Shown here piece by piece: positions 4,092 through 56,258 of a stretch of DNA of 64,000 nt. The DNA lies in the NCBI RefSeq assembly GCF_044324875.1, contig NZ_CP172185.1. One strand, 5' to 3'. The stretch comes from Escherichia coli (GTDB lineage Bacteria; Pseudomonadota; Gammaproteobacteria; Enterobacterales; Enterobacteriaceae). A program made the position numbers and the translations under genes. Each line of letters begins with the position of its first letter. The stretch's first letter is position 1. The notes beneath the pieces are model-generated. The model made no database searches, was not told the origin of the DNA, and saw nothing but the letters and a program-made list of their open reading frames with translations.

Positions 4092-4985
4092 TTACCAGCG
4101 ACCGGACGCGCCGCCACCGCCAGAAGAACCGCCCCCGCCGCTAAATCCGCCGCCACTTGAGCCGCCACCGGAAGAGGATGAAGAAGAACCTTTTCTTGAA
4201 GCTCTTTCTTTACTGAGTTTTTTGTATTTGGCGCGTAGCTTTTTATTAACGATAAGCCAAAAAATAACCAGTGGTACGATAGCAAAAGGCGTGAGCATAC
4301 CGCAGGCAACGATTAAATTCGTCCATGGTCCTGGCTCGGCAACATAGAGGAATACCATCCCATAAATTCCGCCAGTCAGTGCTATCCAGGGTAAATTCGA
4401 CGGATCGGTAAAAACAATAAAATATGAAAGTACCGCCAGCAATATAATTACAGCAAGCGATAATGGAATAGGGGGATTGATACTGTAATAATCCCCCCTG
4501 TCTTCCGGTAATTCACCATTCAACAGAAGCGCTCCGATATTTTCGCTTGCCAGTGTTAACCCACCCATCAAGTCATCACTTTTGAAGGCTGGGATTAATA
4601 TATTACGGATAATCTTCGCTGCTTGCAGATCGGTAACCACCCCTTCCAGCCCGTAGCCCACTTCTATACGGACAGCATGATCTTCCCAGGCAACCAGCAG
4701 TAAAATACCATCGTTTCGCTGCTTATCTCCCAGTTTCCAGCTATCAAAAACGCGTGTTGCATATTGTTCAATGGTATCGTCTCCGGTGGATGGCACTATT
4801 AATACGGCGACCTGGGCCCGTGTTTTTTGTGTGATATCCTGCAGCTGTTGTGTCAGTGATTGTTGTTCAGACGTGCTTAACGTACCAGTAATATCGGTCA
4901 CCTGTTGGCGCAGCTCCGGCACAGCAATTTGCTGGGCAAGCCCAGGAAGGCACCATAAAGTAAGTAGAAAAAAGATTAAGCGCAT
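4092..4985 (-). CDS. TPM-domain membrane protein (YgcG-like), paralog A
   Basis: 297 aa; signal peptide, TPM-type domain (VAVLIVPSTGDDTIEQYATRVFDSWKLGDK, ILLLVAWEDH), TM helices, Gly/Ser-rich C-terminal tail ending GGGGASGRW. Confidence 0.85.
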   Translation of the reverse strand: MRLIFFLLTLWCLPGLAQQIAVPELRQQVTDITGTLSTSEQQSLTQQLQDITQKTRAQVAVLIVPSTGDDTIEQYATRVFDSWKLGDKQRNDGILLLVAWEDHAVRIEVGYGLEGVVTDLQAAKIIRNILIPAFKSDDLMGGLTLASENIGALLLNGELPEDRGDYYSINPPIPLSLAVIILLAVLSYFIVFTDPSNLPWIALTGGIYGMVFLYVAEPGPWTNLIVACGMLTPFAIVPLVIFWLIVNKKLRAKYKKLSKERASRKGSSSSSSGGGSSGGGFSGGGGSSGGGGASGRW

Positions 4986-4990
4986 AATGA

Positions 4991-6139
4991 TTACCAGCGT
5001 CCGGATGAACCGCCGCCTCCTGAAGAACCACCACCACCGCGGAAAGAATTTCTCGACGAAGAGCGAGAATGAGCATTACGATTCCCCGTTTTCCTGTTGC
5101 TTTTTTCTCCTGACCCCAGTTTAAGATTGCCAGTAAATTTGGCCACAATGATCAGCAGAACTATGCCAGCAATGGTTATTGGGCCGATAAAATGATCAAT
5201 TAGCCCAATAATTGTTGAGATGAATGCAATATCTTTATTACTGGCGAACACCAGGCACCATCCCACAATAATTATCAGCATCACGACAAACAATGAATTT
5301 CGTCCTGATTCACGAACCTGCGGAGTCTTCTTTTGTTTTTTCACTTTAGTGTTTTTATTTTTGGGGGCCAGCATCATAGGAAATGCGCGGCACATATTAA
5401 AAACTACCGCGAGACGCTGCCAGCAGGTTGTTGCTAACAATAAACTAAAACAAACGACCGATACCCGCCGAATGATGACATCGTCCTGAAAGGAGAAAAA
5501 CCAGACCATAGGGGTAATCATCGATATCATCCATATGCCACGCCCTGGGCGGCTGGCAAATCGCCAGAGGACAACGATGGCAACGATCATCAGCAGTGTC
5601 CAGGCAAGACAAGGCAGCGAACGTTGCGGATTAGCAAACAGATGATTGGCTAAAGCATCCAAAGGGCTAAGGTTCGCTTTGATATGGGTAAACTGTGCGA
5701 TGCTTTCAATTCCGCCCGTTAATCCAGCAAAGAGATTGTTTTTTTCGAATTCTGGCTGCATATGGTAACGAACAATTTGCGCAGCTTGTTCCGGCGGCAA
5801 CATCTGTTCCAGTCCATGTCCAATCTTCATTGACGCCAGCCCTTCCGGCCATACGACGAGAATTAAGATACCTTCGCCATATCGCTTCTCTCCAACGGGT
5901 TTCCAGTGATATACCCCGTATCTCTGCGAGGCTGCAAGTTTAATGTTTTTGCCCCCTGTGGTCGGCGTGACCAACACGGCCACCTGGAAGTGGTTTTGCT
6001 GCACGAGAGTCTGTAATTGTTGAGTTAAAGCAGTTTGTTCTTCTGTCGTTAATGTCCCGGTTAAGTCAGTTACTGAAGGCAATTGTTCAGCGAATACCTG
6101 AAAACCGCATAGCATCAGAAGTAAGAGAAAAATACGCAT
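4991..6139 (-). CDS. TPM-domain membrane protein, paralog B with extra internal hydrophobic insertion
   Basis: 382 aa; signal peptide, divergent TPM domain, additional TM segments, C-terminal tail ending GGGGSSGRW. Confidence 0.8.
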   Translation of the reverse strand: MRIFLLLLMLCGFQVFAEQLPSVTDLTGTLTTEEQTALTQQLQTLVQQNHFQVAVLVTPTTGGKNIKLAASQRYGVYHWKPVGEKRYGEGILILVVWPEGLASMKIGHGLEQMLPPEQAAQIVRYHMQPEFEKNNLFAGLTGGIESIAQFTHIKANLSPLDALANHLFANPQRSLPCLAWTLLMIVAIVVLWRFASRPGRGIWMISMITPMVWFFSFQDDVIIRRVSVVCFSLLLATTCWQRLAVVFNMCRAFPMMLAPKNKNTKVKKQKKTPQVRESGRNSLFVVMLIIIVGWCLVFASNKDIAFISTIIGLIDHFIGPITIAGIVLLIIVAKFTGNLKLGSGEKSNRKTGNRNAHSRSSSRNSFRGGGGSSGGGGSSGRW

Positions 6140-19210: not shown

Positions 19211-20502
19211 CGAATACTCCTGACAACATCGCCCGCCAGATGCCACAGGCCATGACGACGTAAATGACGCCAGAATAACTGGCGCAGCGGTGGAACAGGT
19301 TTATCACCCTGATCCCATAAATCACGGGAAATATCCTGCATTAACGCAGGCCACGCCCGATACCAGCCAGGGCGTTGCAAAAGCGCCGGAACATGCTGAT
19401 AACGCTGTAAAACATCCCACAGCAGGCTGCGCTCTACGTTGTGATGATAAAGCGGAAACAGATTTTGCGGCTCGCGGTGCTGGCAGGCGCTTATTAGCGT
19501 TTGTGCCGCCGCCTGCGCGCCAGTTAGCGCCATATCCATGCCGCGCACGGAAATTCCGGTATTGACGCAACTGCGCAACGCATCGCCCACCAGCAGTCAG
19601 CCGTTACCGGCGTATTGCATCGGCATACTGTGTAAGCCACCTTCTGGCACCAGATGCGCACCATACTCCAGTGATTCCGTGTTTTTGATAAGCGGGCGCA
19701 CTGCCGGATGCGTTTTAAAGCGAGCCAGCAGCTCGCTTGCCGGAACACGACTTTGCGTAAGGGAAGAGAGCGGGCAAACAATCCCTAACGAGAGCGTTTG
19801 TTGATTAGTATAAAGAAATGCGCCGCCGGGTAAGTCATCACAGATCCCGCCGCTGAACAGCAACGCTGCGCCTTCGTTATTCTCCAGATGAAAACGTTCT
19901 TCAATAGCGGATGTTTCCAGCGACAGCACTTCTTTGATCCCCAACGCCATCGCTTCGCCAGCAGGACGAGTCACTAACCCGTGACGTTCAGCCAGGACGC
20001 TGTTGGCACCTTCTGCCAGCACCACATAACGGGCGCGGAGAATATCGTCACCACAAATGACACCACACACCCTGCCGTTTTCTTCATACAGCGCATCCAC
20101 CGTCGCACCGGGGATGCATTCGACACCTTCTTTTTCGGCTTCGGCAACCAGCCACGGATCGAACCGTGCACGTAATACACTCCAGGATTCACCGCCGGGC
20201 TGTAAGCTGGAAAACGTCGTTGCGCCATCCGGCGTTAGCAGAGAAAGGCTTTCGTGAGTGATGCGTCGTTCAAGAGGCGCGGTCAGATGAAATTGCGGGA
20301 GGAGTTCCGCGAGCGCATGGGTGTATAAACGCCCGCCGGAAAGATTTTTGCTGCCGGGGATTTCAGCGCGTTCCAGTAACAGAACGGACAAACCTGCCCG
20401 CGCGCAGCGTAAAGCACAAGCGGTACCTGCTATACCCGCACCAATAATAATAATGTCGCAGTTGTCTTCCATGTCATGCCCCAGATATCCAGAACACAAC
20501 AC
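19201..20502 (-). pseudogene. ygcN: FAD-dependent oxidoreductase (FixC / ETF-QO-like) interrupted by in-frame TGA
   Basis: Two track ORFs (19597..20502 and 19201..19590) are in the same frame, separated by TGA at 19597..19599 (..MQYAGNG * LLVGDALRS..); N-terminal FAD fold IIIIGAGIAGTACAL. Confidence 0.6.
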
Positions 20503-48071: not shown

Positions 48072-49064
48072 ATGAGTCAGAATACGCTGAAAGTTCATGA
48101 TTTAAATGAAGACGCGGAATTTGATGAGAACGGAGTTGAGGTTTTTGACGAGAAAGCCTTAGTTGAAGAGGAACCCAGTGATAACGATTTGGCTGAAGAG
48201 GAGCTGTTATCGCAAGGGGCCACACAGCGTGTGTTGGACGCGACTCAGCTTTACCTTGGTGAGATTGGTTATTCGCCACTGTTAACGGCCGAAGAAGAAG
48301 TTTATTTCGCGCGTCGCGCACTGCGTGGAGATGTCGCTTCACGTCGCCGGATGATTGAAAGTAACCTGCGTCTGGTCGTGAAGATTGCCCGCCGTTATGG
48401 CAATCGTGGTCTGGCGCTGTTGGACCTGATCGAAGAGGGCAACCTGGGGCTGATCCGCGCGGTAGAGAAGTTTGACCCGGAACGTGGTTTCCGCTTCTCA
48501 ACATACGCAACCTGGTGGATCCGCCAGACGATCGAACGGGCGATTATGAACCAAACCCGTACTATTCGTTTGCCGATTCACATCGTAAAGGAGCTGAACG
48601 TTTACCTGCGAACCGCACGCGAGTTGTCCCATAAACTGGACCACGAACCAAGTGCGGAAGAGATCGCAGAGCAACTGGATAAGCCAGTTGATGACGTCAG
48701 CCGTATGCTTCGTCTTAACGAGCGCATTACCTCGGTAGACACCCCGCTGGGTGGTGATTCCGAAAAAGCGTTGCTGGACATCCTGGCCGATGAAAAAGAG
48801 AACGGTCCGGAAGATACCACGCAAGATGACGATATGAAGCAGAGCATCGTCAAATGGCTGTTCGAGCTGAACGCCAAACAGCGTGAAGTGCTGGCACGTC
48901 GATTCGGTTTGCTGGGGTACGAAGCGGCAACACTGGAAGATGTAGGTCGTGAAATTGGCCTCACCCGTGAACGTGTTCGCCAGATTCAGGTTGAAGGCCT
49001 GCGCCGTTTGCGCGAAATCCTGCAAACGCAGGGGCTGAATATCGAAGCGCTGTTCCGCGAGTAA
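48072..49064 (+). CDS. rpoS: RNA polymerase sigma factor RpoS
   Basis: 330 aa; sigma-70 family regions 2-4. Confidence 0.97.
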
Positions 49065-49184: not shown

Positions 49185-49592
49185 CTATTTGCTCATCATC
49201 TTGCGCACCAGCTGCATAAACAGCTCCTGCTCTTCTCCACTCAAACGCCCCAAAAATTCCGCATCCACACTGTCACCAATCGGTATCGCCGCAGCAAGTA
49301 CCTTTTCTCCTTCGGCAGTCAGCCAGACAAAGCGTCGCCGCTTGTCAGCGGCGTCATGTTCACGTCTGACTAAGCCACGATTTTCCATTCTTGCCAACAT
49401 TTCTGCCAGCGTTGCTTTGGTGCTGACTGCTGCTTCTATCAGTGCCGCCTGTTCGATACTAGGCTTATCAGCAATGGCGCGCATCACCGCGTACTGTGGT
49501 TTGGTGAGGTCAGGTAACTCGTGCTGCCAGCGAGCCGTGTGCTGCTGAAAAAGCTGTCGTAACTGATGGAACGCTTTATTTCGTAACGCCAT
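49185..49592 (-). CDS. MarR/SlyA-family transcriptional regulator
   Basis: ORF 49185..49625; probable start ATG 49592 (MALRNKAFHQL, GGAG 8 nt upstream), alternative 49625; winged-HTH core. Confidence 0.8.
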   Translation of the reverse strand: MALRNKAFHQLRQLFQQHTARWQHELPDLTKPQYAVMRAIADKPSIEQAALIEAAVSTKATLAEMLARMENRGLVRREHDAADKRRRFVWLTAEGEKVLAAAIPIGDSVDAEFLGRLSGEEQELFMQLVRKMMSK

Positions 49593-49738: not shown

Positions 49739-50332
49739 ATGAGACTGATCGTCGGGATGACAGGGGCTACCGGTGCGCCTCTTGGGGTGGCATTACTGCA
49801 AGCGCTGCGGGAGATGCCGAATGTCGAGACTCATCTGGTGATGTCGAAGTGGGCGAAAACCACCATTGAACTGGAAACGCCTTACAGCGCTCGCGATGTT
49901 GCTGCCCTCGCAGACTTCAGTCATAACCCGGCGGATCAGGCGGCGACCATCTCCTCAGGTTCCTTTCGTACCGACGGCATGATCGTTATTCCGTGCAGTA
50001 TGAAAACGCTCGCCGGTATCCGTGCCGGTTACGCCGATGGCCTGGTAGGGCGCGCGGCGGACGTCGTGCTCAAAGAAGGCCGCAAACTAGTGCTGGTGCC
50101 GCGTGAAATGCCGCTTAGCACCATCCATCTCGAAAATATGCTCGCACTTTCACGCATGGGCGTGGCGATGGTGCCGCCGATGCCTGCCTTTTATAACCAT
50201 CCCGAAACGGTAGATGACATTGTCCACCACGTGGTAGCCCGCGTGCTGGATCAATTTGGCCTCGAACATCCTCACGCCAGGCGCTGGCAAGGATTGCCGC
50301 AGGCCCGGAATTTTTCTCAGGAGAATGAATAA
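49739..50332 (+). CDS. UbiX/Pad1-family flavin prenyltransferase (decarboxylase B subunit)
   Basis: 197 aa; MRLIVGMTGATGAP flavoprotein N-terminus. Confidence 0.88.
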   Translation: MRLIVGMTGATGAPLGVALLQALREMPNVETHLVMSKWAKTTIELETPYSARDVAALADFSHNPADQAATISSGSFRTDGMIVIPCSMKTLAGIRAGYADGLVGRAADVVLKEGRKLVLVPREMPLSTIHLENMLALSRMGVAMVPPMPAFYNHPETVDDIVHHVVARVLDQFGLEHPHARRWQGLPQARNFSQENE

Positions 50333-51759
50333 TGGCATTTGATGATTTACGCAGCTTTTTACAGGCGCTTGATGACCACGGCCAGTTACTGAAAATCAGC
50401 GAAGAGGTGAACGCGGAACCGGATCTGGCAGCCGCTGCCAACGCCACCGGACGTATCGGCGATGGTGCACCGGCGCTGTGGTTTGACAATATTCGCGGCT
50501 TTATCGATGCCCGCGTTGCAATGAACACCATCGGTTCCTGGCAGAACCACGCGATTTCCCTCGGCCTGCCGCCAAACACCCCGGTTAAAAAACAGATTGA
50601 TGAGTTTATCCGCCGCTGGGATAACTTCCCCATTGCCCCGGAGCGCCGCGCCAATCCAGCCTGGGCGCAGAACACCGTCGATGGCGACGAGATCAATTTG
50701 TTCGATATCCTGCCACTGTTTCGTTTAAACGACGGTGATGGCGGTTTCTATCTCGACAAAGCCTGCGTAGTTTCCCGCGATCCGCTCGACCCGGATAACT
50801 TCGGCAAGCAGAACGTCGGCATCTACCGCATGGAAGTGAAGGGCAAGCGTAAGCTCGGCCTGCAACCGGTGCCGATGCACGATATCGCTCTGCATCTGCA
50901 TAAAGCGGAAGAACGCGGTGAAGATCTGCCGATTGCGATCACACTCGGTAACGATCCGATCATCACCCTGATGGGGGCCACGCCGCTGAAATACGATCAG
51001 TCTGAGTACGAAATGGCGGGCGCGCTGCGCGAAAGCCCGTACCCGATCGCCACCGCCCCGCTGACCGGTTTTGATGTGCCGTGGGGTTCAGAAGTGATCC
51101 TCGAAGGGGTCATCGAAAGCCGTAAACGCGAAATCGAAGGGCCGTTCGGTGAGTTTACCGGCCACTACTCCGGCGGGCGTAACATGACCGTGGTGCGTAT
51201 CGATAAAGTCTCTTACCGTACCAAACCGATTTTCGAATCGCTCTATCTTGGTATGCCGTGGACCGAAATCGACTACCTGATGGGGCCTGCCACCTGCGTG
51301 CCGCTGTATCAGCAACTGAAAGCCGAGTTCCCGGAAGTGCAGGCGGTAAACGCCATGTACACCCACGGCCTGTTGGCGATTATCTCCACCAAAAAACGCT
51401 ACGGTGGCTTTGCCCGCGCGGTGGGCCTGCGTGCGATGACCACGCCGCACGGTCTGGGCTACGTGAAGATGGTGATTATGGTCGATGAAGACGTTGATCC
51501 GTTCAACCTGCCGCAGGTGATGTGGGCGCTCTCTTCGAAAGTGAACCCGGCAGGGGATTTGGTGCAGTTGCCGAATATGTCCGTGCTGGAACTCGACCCC
51601 GGCTCAAGCCCGGCCGGTATCACCGACAAGCTGATTATCGACGCTACCACGCCTGTCGCCCCGGACAACCGTGGTCACTACAGCCAGCCGGTGGTGGATT
51701 TACCGGAAACCAAAGCCTGGGCTGAAAAACTGACCGCTATGCTGGCCGCACGTCAATAA
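50332..51759 (+). CDS. UbiD-family (de)carboxylase (C subunit)
   Basis: 475 aa; start overlaps upstream stop (TAATG). Confidence 0.88.
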   Translation: MAFDDLRSFLQALDDHGQLLKISEEVNAEPDLAAAANATGRIGDGAPALWFDNIRGFIDARVAMNTIGSWQNHAISLGLPPNTPVKKQIDEFIRRWDNFPIAPERRANPAWAQNTVDGDEINLFDILPLFRLNDGDGGFYLDKACVVSRDPLDPDNFGKQNVGIYRMEVKGKRKLGLQPVPMHDIALHLHKAEERGEDLPIAITLGNDPIITLMGATPLKYDQSEYEMAGALRESPYPIATAPLTGFDVPWGSEVILEGVIESRKREIEGPFGEFTGHYSGGRNMTVVRIDKVSYRTKPIFESLYLGMPWTEIDYLMGPATCVPLYQQLKAEFPEVQAVNAMYTHGLLAIISTKKRYGGFARAVGLRAMTTPHGLGYVKMVIMVDEDVDPFNLPQVMWALSSKVNPAGDLVQLPNMSVLELDPGSSPAGITDKLIIDATTPVAPDNRGHYSQPVVDLPETKAWAEKLTAMLAARQ

Positions 51760-51769
51760 GGAGAACAAG

Positions 51770-52006
51770 ATGATTTGTCCACGTTGTGCTGATGAACAGA
51801 TTGAAGTGATGGCGAAATCGCCGGTAAAAGATGTCTGGACGGTCTACCAGTGCCAGCATTGCCTCTATACCTAGCGCGATACCGAACCGCTACGTCGCAC
51901 CAGCCGCGAACATTATCCCGAAGCGTTCCGCATGACGCAGAAAGATATTGATGACGCGCCGATGGTGCCGAGCATCCCGCCGCTGCTGGCGGCAGATAAG
52001 CGTTAA
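51770..52006 (+). pseudogene. Decarboxylase small (D) subunit-like ORF interrupted by in-frame amber codon
   Basis: ATG 51770 (SD GGAGAA upstream) opens a 78-codon frame MICPRCADEQ..CLYT * RDTEPLRRTSREHYPEAF..LLAADKR with TAG at 51872..51874; Cys-x2-Cys..Cys-x2-Cys zinc-ribbon pattern. Confidence 0.55.
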
Positions 52007-52015
52007 ATAAAAAAT

Positions 52016-52043
52016 GCCGGGTAGAGGCTTTGCTTTACCCGGC
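52016..52043. terminator. Bidirectional terminator hairpin (GCCGGGTA..TACCCGGC) between decarboxylase module and pphB
   Basis: Inverted repeat with A6 upstream (U-run for the minus-strand transcript) and T-rich downstream. Confidence 0.6.
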
Positions 52044-53696: not shown

Positions 53697-56258
53697 TTAT
53701 ACCAGACTCTTCAACCGATAAATCCACTCCAGCGCCTGGCGCGGAGTGAGTGAATCCGGGTCGAGATTTTCCAGCGCTTCCACCGCGGGCGAGGTTTCTT
53801 CCGGCACTGAAAGCAGCGACATCTGCGTGCCATCGACCTGTGTCGCGGCGGCATTCGGCGAAATGCTCTCCAGCTCGCGCAGTTTTTGCCGCGCACGCTT
53901 GATCACCTCTTTCGGCACACCTGCCAGTGCAGCAACCGCCAGGCCGTAGCTTTTGCTCGCCGCGCCATCCTGCACGCTGTGCATAAAGGCAATGGTGTCG
54001 CCGTGCTCCAGTGCATCGAGATGCACGTTGGCGACGCCTTCCATTTTCTCCGGTAACTGGGTCAGCTCGAAATAGTGGGTAGCAAACAACGTCAACGCTT
54101 TAATCTTATTCGCCAGATTTTCCGCGCACGCCCACGCCAGCGACAGACCATCGTAAGTGGACGTCCCGCGCCCAATCTCATCCATCAGCACCAGACTGTA
54201 CTCGGTGGCGTTATGCAGAATATTGGCGGTTTCGGTCATCTCCACCATAAAGGTTGAACGCCCGGATGCCAGATCATCCGCTGCTCCTACGCGCGTGAAG
54301 ATACGGTCGATCGGCCCAATCTCGACTTTTTGCGCCGGTACGTAGCTGCCGATATACGCCATCAGCGCAATCAACGCGGTCTGGCGCATATAGGTACTTT
54401 TACCGCCCATATTCGGACCGGTAATGATCAACATGCGACGCTGCGGCGACAGGTTCAGCGGGTTGGCGATAAATGGCTCGTTCAGTACCTGTTCAACCAC
54501 CGGATGGCGGCCTTCGGTGATGCGAATACCCGGTTTATCAATGAAGGTCGGGCAGGTGTAGTTCAGGGTATAGGCCCGTTCCGCCAGGTTCACCAGCACG
54601 TCGAGTTCCGCTAGCGCGCTCGCGCTCTGTTGCAACGCTTCCAGATGCGGCAACAGCAGGTCGAACAACTCTTCATAAAGCTGTTTTTCCAGTGCCAGTG
54701 CTTTGCCTTTTGAAGTGAGAACTTTGTCTTCGTACTCTTTTAGCTCTGGAATAATGTAGCGCTCGGCGTTTTTCAGCGTCTGGCGACGCATGTAATTGAT
54801 GGGTGCCAGATGGCTTTGTCCACGGCTGATCTGAATGTAATAACCATGAACCGCGTTAAAGCCGACTTTCAGCGTGTCCAGGCCAGTACGTTCACGCTCG
54901 CGGACTTCCAGACGCTCCAGATAATCGGTCGCGCCGTCAGCCAGCGCGCGCCACTCATCCAGCTCTTCGTTATAGCCCGATGCGATAACACCACCGTCGC
55001 GTACCAGCACTGGCGGTGTTTCGATGATTGCCCGCTCCAGCAGATCGCGCAGCTCGGCAAACTCGCCCATTTTTTCACGCAGCGCCTGTACCGGAGCGCT
55101 ATCGACATTTTCTAATTGCGCACGCAGCTCCGGCAATTGCTGGAAAGCGTGACGCATACGGGCCAGATCGCGCGGGCGAGCAGTTCGTAAAGCCAGACGC
55201 GCCAGAATACGTTCCAGGTCTCCGACCTGACGCAGCACCGGCTGTAGCCCGGCGGTGAAATCCTGCAATGCGCCAATAGTTTGCTGGCGCTCAAGTAACA
55301 CGCGGGTATCGCGCACTGGCATATGCAGCCAGCGTTTCAGCATACGACTACCCATCGGCGTTACAGTGCAGTCGAGCACTGAAGCCAGCGTATTTTCCGC
55401 ACCGCCCGCCAGGTTCTGGGTAATTTCCAGGTTACGACGCGTCGCGGAATCCATAATGATGCTGTCCTGCTCACGTTCCATAGTGATAGAACGAATATGC
55501 GGCAGAGTCGTACGTTGGGTATCTTTCGCATACTGCAACAGACAACCGGCAGCACAAAGTCCGCGCGGCGCGTTCTCGACGCCAAAACCGACCAGATCGC
55601 GGGTGCCAAATTGCAGATTCAACTGCTGGCGCGCGGTGTCGATTTCAAACTCCCACAGCGGACGACGGCGCAGACCGCGACGACCTTCAATCAGCGACAT
55701 CTCAGCAAAATCTTCTGCATATAGCAGTTCCGCCGGATTAGTGCGTTGCAGTTCTGCCGCCATCGTTTCCCGGTCAGCCGGTTCGCTCAGGCGAAAACGA
55801 CCGGAACTGATATCCAGCGTCGCGTAGCCGAAACCTTTACTGTCCTGCCAGATAGCCGCCAGCAGATTGTCCTGGCGCTCTTGTAACAGGGCTTCATCGC
55901 TGATGGTGCCTGGCGTAACGATACGCACAACTTTGCGCTCAACTGGACCTTTGCTGGTCGCCGGATCGCCAATTTGTTCGCAGATGGCAACGGACTCGCC
56001 CTGATTCACCAGTTTGGCGAGGTAGTTTTCCACCGCATGGTAGGGGATCCCCGCCATCGGGATCGGCTCTCCCGCCGAAGCACCGCGTTTGGTCAGTGAA
56101 ATATCCAGCAGTTGCGACGCGCGTTTTGCGTCGTCATAAAACAGTTCATAAAAATCACCCATCCGGTAAAACAGCAGGATCTCGGGATGCTGGGCTTTCA
56201 GCTTGAGATATTGCTGCATCATGGGCGTATGGGCATCGAAATTTTCTATTGCACTCAT
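53697..56258 (-). CDS. mutS: DNA mismatch repair protein MutS
   Basis: 853 aa; Walker [10 protein letters not shown]. Confidence 0.97.

Follow-up and report, generated by a model that had tools for sequence, protein, structure and literature searches.

The window, by which we mean the whole 64-kb stretch of Escherichia coli DNA analysed here, carries a marR-vdcB-vdcC-vdcD gene cluster, located in the species' variable rpoS-mutS region. The cluster is flanked by rpoS (48072-49064) on one side and by pphB, a Sel1-repeat gene and mutS (53697-56258) on the other. A MarR-family regulator (49185-49592, minus strand; named "slyA" or kpdR in older literature; PMC4209514) is oriented divergently from three plus-strand genes: an intact vdcB, encoding UbiX-family flavin prenyltransferase subunit B (49739-50332; 312.8 bits against NF041206, cut-off 290), an intact vdcC, encoding UbiD-family decarboxylase subunit C (50332-51759; 789 bits against NF041204, cut-off 650), and vdcD (51770-52006), which is the last gene of the cluster. 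In earlier descriptions of the rpoS-mutS region, the B, C and D genes appear as kpdBCD/yclC and the regulator as slyA. The arrangement resembles patterns I and IV of the polymorphic rpoS-mutS (o454-nlpD) region, which contain slyA-kpdB-kpdC-kpdD, and the gene order of the window, nlpD-rpoS-marR/slyA-BCD-pphB-(Sel1)-mutS, is that of O157:H7/EPEC-type strains (PMC4209514). Whereas the published descriptions of this region concern the presence or absence of gene blocks, the window shows a point inactivation, and we found no description of a point inactivation of kpdD/vdcD in the literature searched.

The complete genomes closest to the window are phylogroup-D-like; E. coli 042, for example, has the same gene order and 98.8% identity over 12.5 kb. 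Across complete E. coli genomes the vdc gene is an accessory one, present in 2,414 of 5,426. The rpoS gene of the window is intact (330 aa, with Glu33). Elsewhere, the annotation of O157:H7 strain 7386WT gives rpoS (locus L002, 374-1366) as a pseudogene carrying an internal stop, and in two assemblies that carry the vdcD stop codon described below on an A15V allele (L031 and L034) rpoS is truncated or split at the left end of the locus.

The vdcD frame starts at ATG 51770, behind what reads as a GGAG ribosome-binding site (51760-51763, plus strand) placed 6 nt before the start codon and 1 nt past the vdcC stop, and it runs for 78 codons to a TAA at 52004-52006. Codon 35 of this frame is an amber codon, TAG, in place of Trp35 (TGG) (51872-51874, plus strand; the mutated base is the A at 51873), in the local context CAT TGC CTC TAT ACC TAG CGC GAT ACC, and 43 further codons stay open 3' of it. 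The frame translates as MICPRCADEQIEVMAKSPVKDVWTVYQCQHCLYT up to the TAG and as RDTEPLRRTSREHYPEAFRMTQKDIDDAPMVPSIPPLLAADKR from there to the TAA. An earlier note, made from the letters of the window, had described this interrupted frame, and its coordinates were confirmed on the sequence. Codons 1-34 (51770-51871), which are still translated, contain both CxxC cysteine pairs (C3/C6 and C28/C31) and beta-strands 1 and 2. Codons 36-78 (51875-52003), now untranslated, encode R36, T38, E39, two short helices and a Pro-rich tail, and specify the same residues as the intact and common E. coli allele (P0038).

The convergent genes vdcD and pphB have between them a GC-rich 11-bp hairpin (52016-52043; RNA fold -20.8 kcal/mol, z = -4.1) that is probably a shared bidirectional terminator. 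A simple terminator scan missed this element owing to its loop rule, and it was found by RNA folding. The hairpin marks vdcD as the final gene of the operon, so the amber codon should have no polar effect on other genes.

We identified the interrupted frame as vdcD (ecdD/kpdD), the zinc-ribbon subunit D of a non-oxidative hydroxyarylic acid decarboxylase, from profile, sequence and predicted-fold comparisons. With the tryptophan restored, the 78-residue sequence scored 121.2 bits against the NCBIfam VdcD profile NF041205 (cut-off 30), with residues 3-72 on positions 1-70 of the 70-position profile, and the frame is therefore no chance ORF; PF26358 is recorded even for the 34-aa product. The restored sequence also matched ShdD in the PDB (7ae4; 7AE4/7AE5; E=3.5e-11) in an alignment that covers C3, C6, C28, C31 and the motif Y-x-W-R-x-T-E. 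Among VdcD relatives, structures have been solved only for the ShdD/VdcD chains of the VdcCD complex from Sedimentibacter hydroxybenzoicus. An AlphaFold (AF2) model of the restored protein, built on an alignment of 29 homologues (pLDDT 92.4), has strands at residues 11-16, 24-28 and 34-36, a predicted three-stranded zinc-ribbon fold like that of ShVdcD, and its top seven Foldseek matches were all ShVdcD chains (E 2e-6 to 7e-3, TMt 0.78-0.84), the small chains of 7ae5/7ae4/7ae7 being matched at E 2e-6 and TM 0.68-0.84. W35 falls in the strand at 34-36, which puts the amber codon within strand 3 of the zinc ribbon.

The locus shares three features with S. hydroxybenzoicus VdcD/ShdD (7AE4, 7AE5, 7AE7) and with EcdD/KpdD (NF041205, PF26358): cysteines at 3, 6, 28 and 31, the sequence W-R-x-T-E after the second knuckle, and a gene position directly 3' of vdcB-vdcC, that is, of a UbiX-type B and a UbiD-type C gene. 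The four cysteines align with the zinc ligands C3, C6, C28 and C31 of ShVdcD (PMC8379154). The earlier note's reading of the frame as a small decarboxylase subunit with an N-terminal zinc ribbon is thus borne out by profile, structure match and predicted fold. Unlike the characterised VdcD members, which have uninterrupted frames of 66-80 codons, the copy in the window is broken at Trp35 and encodes a 34-residue fragment only. The locus is a pseudogene of the family and no working member of it.

Base-by-base alignment showed TGG at codon 35 in E. coli GF131, O157:H7 7386WT and 631. In the 29 aligned homologues, drawn from Enterobacterales, Vibrio, Shewanella, Halomonadaceae, two actinomycetes and Sedimentibacter (ShVdcD), W35 was kept in 27, both exceptions being frameshifted metagenome products, and R36 (directly preceded by Trp35), T38 and E39 were invariant. 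The earlier note had proposed a TGG ancestor and called for an alignment to small subunits; the residue found at this position is indeed Trp. The possibility that orthologous subunits naturally end here is ruled out by their lengths, 74-80 aa overall and 78 aa in those annotated E. coli genomes that were examined. We also considered pyrrolysine-type or other programmed recoding of the codon and rejected it: orthologues have Trp in place of a conserved stop, the organism is E. coli, and a scan of the 64-kb window with ARAGORN found no tRNA genes, dedicated or otherwise.

The amber allele is derived and rare, as judged from searches with two TAG-bearing 75-nt probes that represent the two major local haplotype families and retrieved 697 and 1,720 genomes: neither had an exact match among the ~2,417 complete RefSeq E. 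coli genomes carrying the gene, and the best matches of both were all one base off. The lesion is also recent, since VdcB and VdcC of the window show 100% protein identity to their E. coli 042 counterparts. In 62 genes compared with 042 across the window, an internal stop was found in two only, vdcD and ygcN. The latter, an FAD-dependent oxidoreductase gene (20472-19201, minus strand), carries the TGA that the earlier note had pointed out; it is W292* at 19597-19599 on the minus strand, a TGG>TGA change relative to E. coli 042. Its context, GCTGGC, is not a Dcm site, and W292* therefore looks like an ordinary transition.

An exact look-up of the 34-aa product, which appears in GenBank as [quoted passage not shown], returned 309 collection blocks and 222 contigs, the contig count being too high because of clonal sampling and of genes cut short at contig ends. 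Reading the DNA of public assemblies, we found TAG on at least eight distinct vdcD haplotypes: (1) that of the window and L008; (2) L007; (3) L009; (4) L005, which is O157:H7-like; (5) L004/L006/L010/L011; (6) L022, a V25I allele; (7) L027, an E9A/Q10L allele; and (8) L031-L038, an A15V allele. L008 is public contig UDIE01000012.1 (GCA_900482385.1), which agrees with the window at every one of 12,105 nt, the TAG among them, and may come from the same strain. Apart from this contig, the flanking 12 kb of L004-L011 differs from the window by 2-5%, and the TAG loci show at least four different downstream gene arrangements. Three of the TAG haplotypes have a TGG counterpart that is identical outside the nonsense sites; L005 differs from its O157:H7 counterpart (L002) by the amber base alone. 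The TGG relatives of L004 and L007 (L013 and L012, respectively) bear Q57* instead. We rejected an ancient shared TAG allele spread by recombination, as the two SNPs closest to the amber (position 96, which lies 8 nt upstream, and position 123, which lies 19 nt downstream) occur together with TAG in all four possible pairings. From these sequence comparisons, independent recurrence of TAG is far more parsimonious than the spread of one allele.

The same collection bears on whether the TAG could be a sequencing or assembly error in one record, a reading in whose favour a single base separates the window from the nearest intact alleles. We consider this barely conceivable: dozens of NCBI, ENA and Logan assemblies, independent of one another, carry the same TAG on the eight haplotypes, the 12.1-kb public contig is identical to the window, and assembly artefacts are not typically G>A changes outside homopolymers.

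Several features of the look-up results bear on how they are read. The 34-aa product was found on 222 contigs, compared with 0-23 for six control truncation lengths (38, 46, 48, 50, 56 and 57 aa), a contrast that is semi-quantitative only because many of the control truncations are genes cut by contig ends. A further nonsense allele, Q57* (CAG>TAG at codon 57, a non-Dcm site), recurs on three haplotypes (L012, L013-L015 and L021), so recurrence alone is no proof of a hotspot. A number of metagenome and Logan contigs (L023-L026, L028 and L016-L020) end within 1-2 bases of codon 35 or 57. Most likely these ends were selected for by the look-up itself, which sought exact truncated products; they could also reflect assembly-graph breaks at within-sample polymorphism. 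Separately, a Shigella dysenteriae VdcD allele (P0058, on 182 contigs) has a C6R substitution that removes one zinc ligand and has probably inactivated this subunit independently.

The change to TAG is probably explained by the position of codon 35 inside a Dcm site (51870-51874), which reads CCTGG in intact alleles and CCTAG in the window. Every TGG allele examined has the CCTGG context (aCCTGGc), and the G>A change falls at position 4 of the site, where the minus strand has the internal C of CCAGG. The second C of CCWGG is the base that Dcm methylates, on both strands (PMC4924334), and deamination there leaves T:G mismatches (CTWGG/CCWGG) on which Vsr acts in very-short-patch (VSP) repair (PMC2715241). 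[quoted passage not shown] We propose that Dcm would methylate the internal C of CCAGG on the strand opposite vdcD, within the ancestral aCCTGGc site that included codon 35. Spontaneous deamination of this 5-methylcytosine would give a T:G mismatch (CTAGG/CCTGG) which, when missed by VSP repair, would be fixed as CCTAG and hence as TAG in the vdcD frame. Since dcm and vsr lie outside the 64-kb window, methylation of the CCTGG site in this strain is assumed. On this account E. coli has acquired the amber codon many times independently, the site being hypermutable and the operon accessory and dispensable. Both the Dcm-site context and the recurrence on multiple backgrounds are additions to the earlier note's account.

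This origin closely resembles the classical 5-methylcytosine hotspots of lacI, which VSP repair by Vsr counteracts and with which it shares the CCWGG site, a transition at the methylated position, an amber product and recurrence (PMC2715241, PMC4924334). The two differ in that the lacI hotspots are CAG>TAG changes in a coding-strand CCAGG, whereas the vdcD change is TGG>TAG through a putative deamination on the non-coding strand of CCTGG. They differ also in that the lacI sites come from a selected mutant spectrum, and the vdcD sites from natural isolates in which methylation of the site is assumed.

The spectrum of changes at codon 35 agrees with such a bias. TGA at this codon would yield the same 34-aa product as TAG, yet it was found on none of the eight TAG backgrounds, an outcome with a binomial probability of ~0.004 under equal rates; the recurrence is thus biased to TAG over TGA, with clonal sampling and partial genes at contig ends as caveats. 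JGI metagenome scans with 31-mers for the codon-35 TGA and then for TAG were both empty, and so uninformative on the TAG:TGA ratio. In the surrounding 3.2-kb marR-vdcD region, compared across 15 haplotypes, transitions were polymorphic at 4 of 26 Dcm columns versus 17.7% of other C/G columns, no significant excess in a comparison of very low power at this number of haplotypes. Singleton transitions in the same small sample occurred at 2 of 24 Dcm columns versus 6.3% (p=0.66). One of these two singletons, 2.4 kb from the amber codon, is a CCAGG>CTAGG change at 49460 that produces G45S in the MarR-family regulator and is private to the window lineage among the 15 haplotypes. This second Dcm-type change fits the deamination model.

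We weighed whether loss of vdcD is instead positively selected in some niches, the Dcm site being merely the easiest route to it. Such selection could account for the number of inactivations in so small a gene (W35* on eight backgrounds, Q57* on three, C6R and the frameshifted products) and for the absence of the cluster from over half of complete E. coli genomes. That only TAG is seen where TGA would be equally null, however, points to mutation bias rather than selection. The TAG was also not found in the ~2,417 complete gene-carrying genomes, so no TAG lineage is common, and the presence or absence of the operon is equally well explained by relaxed selection. We therefore regard positive selection as unlikely.

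What the amber codon does to the decarboxylase can be judged from the characterised enzymes. VdcD is an integral, stoichiometric component of the decarboxylase (Marshall et al., PMC8379154): 59% of its residues lie in the interface with VdcC, R12, R36 and E39 of ShVdcD form salt bridges to VdcC, and VdcD is needed for VdcC activation in the Bacillus subtilis and S. hydroxybenzoicus enzymes, little to no activity being detected for VdcC without it (PMC8379154). Translation in the window would stop after Thr34. The 34-residue product keeps the four zinc-ligand cysteines and lacks strand 3, R36/T38/E39 and the C-terminal half, with the loss of two salt-bridge residues. Loss of VdcD function is the expected outcome, and since VdcC needs VdcD, the strain should have no active VdcBCD decarboxylase of the 4-hydroxybenzoate/vanillate type, even with vdcB and vdcC unbroken.

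Later events in TAG-bearing relatives point the same way. On a single TAG haplotype, vdcC is intact in L011 and frameshifted in three relatives, by loss of 1 nt in L004 and L010 (split vdcC at ~4564-5990) and of 11 nt in L006 (~4574-5990). As read from these sequences, the frameshifts suggest stepwise decay of the operon after the amber mutation, which is to be expected of an operon that no longer works and not of one whose amber is suppressed.

Could the 34-residue zinc-knuckle peptide still activate VdcC, or serve some other role, so that the operon remains functional? In its favour, the peptide has strands 1-2 and every zinc ligand, the window's vdcB and vdcC genes are unbroken, and ShVdcD deleted for its Pro-rich tail is little affected in activity (PMC8379154), which means that not all of the lost VdcD sequence is essential. 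The amber codon cuts far deeper than the tail, however, removing strand 3, W35/R36/T38/E39 and two of the three salt-bridge residues. Intact vdcB and vdcC are expected anyway after a recent lesion, and vdcC has since been lost by frameshift in other TAG lineages. An active fragment is accordingly very unlikely in our estimation.

A full-length VdcD might also be made if the UAG were decoded by an amber-suppressor tRNA encoded elsewhere in the genome or if termination were leaky. The frame 3' of the stop is perfectly preserved, and the base right after the TAG is a C, a comparatively weak termination context in E. coli. The preserved frame is accounted for by the recency of the lesion, however, and the stop is not conserved in orthologues. 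Efficient amber suppressors are not known from natural E. coli isolates. The earlier note's hint at amber suppression found no support, as the 64-kb window contains no tRNA gene and the vdcC frameshifts gained in other TAG lineages argue against maintained function. We hold readthrough to be highly improbable.

The same Dcm chemistry raises the idea that codon 35 is a methylation-driven, two-way mutational switch of the decarboxylase. Dcm-dependent deamination would turn vdcD off (CCTGG>CCTAG) at a raised rate, and Vsr would convert T:G replication mispairs in the opposite-strand CTAGG to C:G, raising the rate of reversion to TGG. If this were true, E. coli populations would carry a contingency-like ON/OFF polymorphism of phenolic-acid decarboxylation. 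We give this idea very little credence; the TAG lineages show further vdcC decay, not restoration.

Overall, we are fairly confident that the vdcD amber codon is a genuine, recent loss-of-function allele, that it arose by one G>A transition (TGG>TAG, Trp35>amber) at a Dcm hotspot, and that it is recurrent. It is an ordinary pseudogene with a textbook mutational origin, and no new mechanism or system. For annotation, vdcD of this strain is a pseudogene with an internal stop, and the strain is predicted to lack VdcBCD activity despite carrying vdcB and vdcC, which matters wherever 4-hydroxybenzoate/vanillate decarboxylation or phenol formation is inferred from gene presence. The locus also offers a clean natural example of a Dcm-site amber hotspot, in which one codon of an accessory gene has been hit with at least eight separate origins, always in the way that deamination predicts. 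Population genomics could use Dcm amber sites of this kind as internal markers of methylation-induced mutation.
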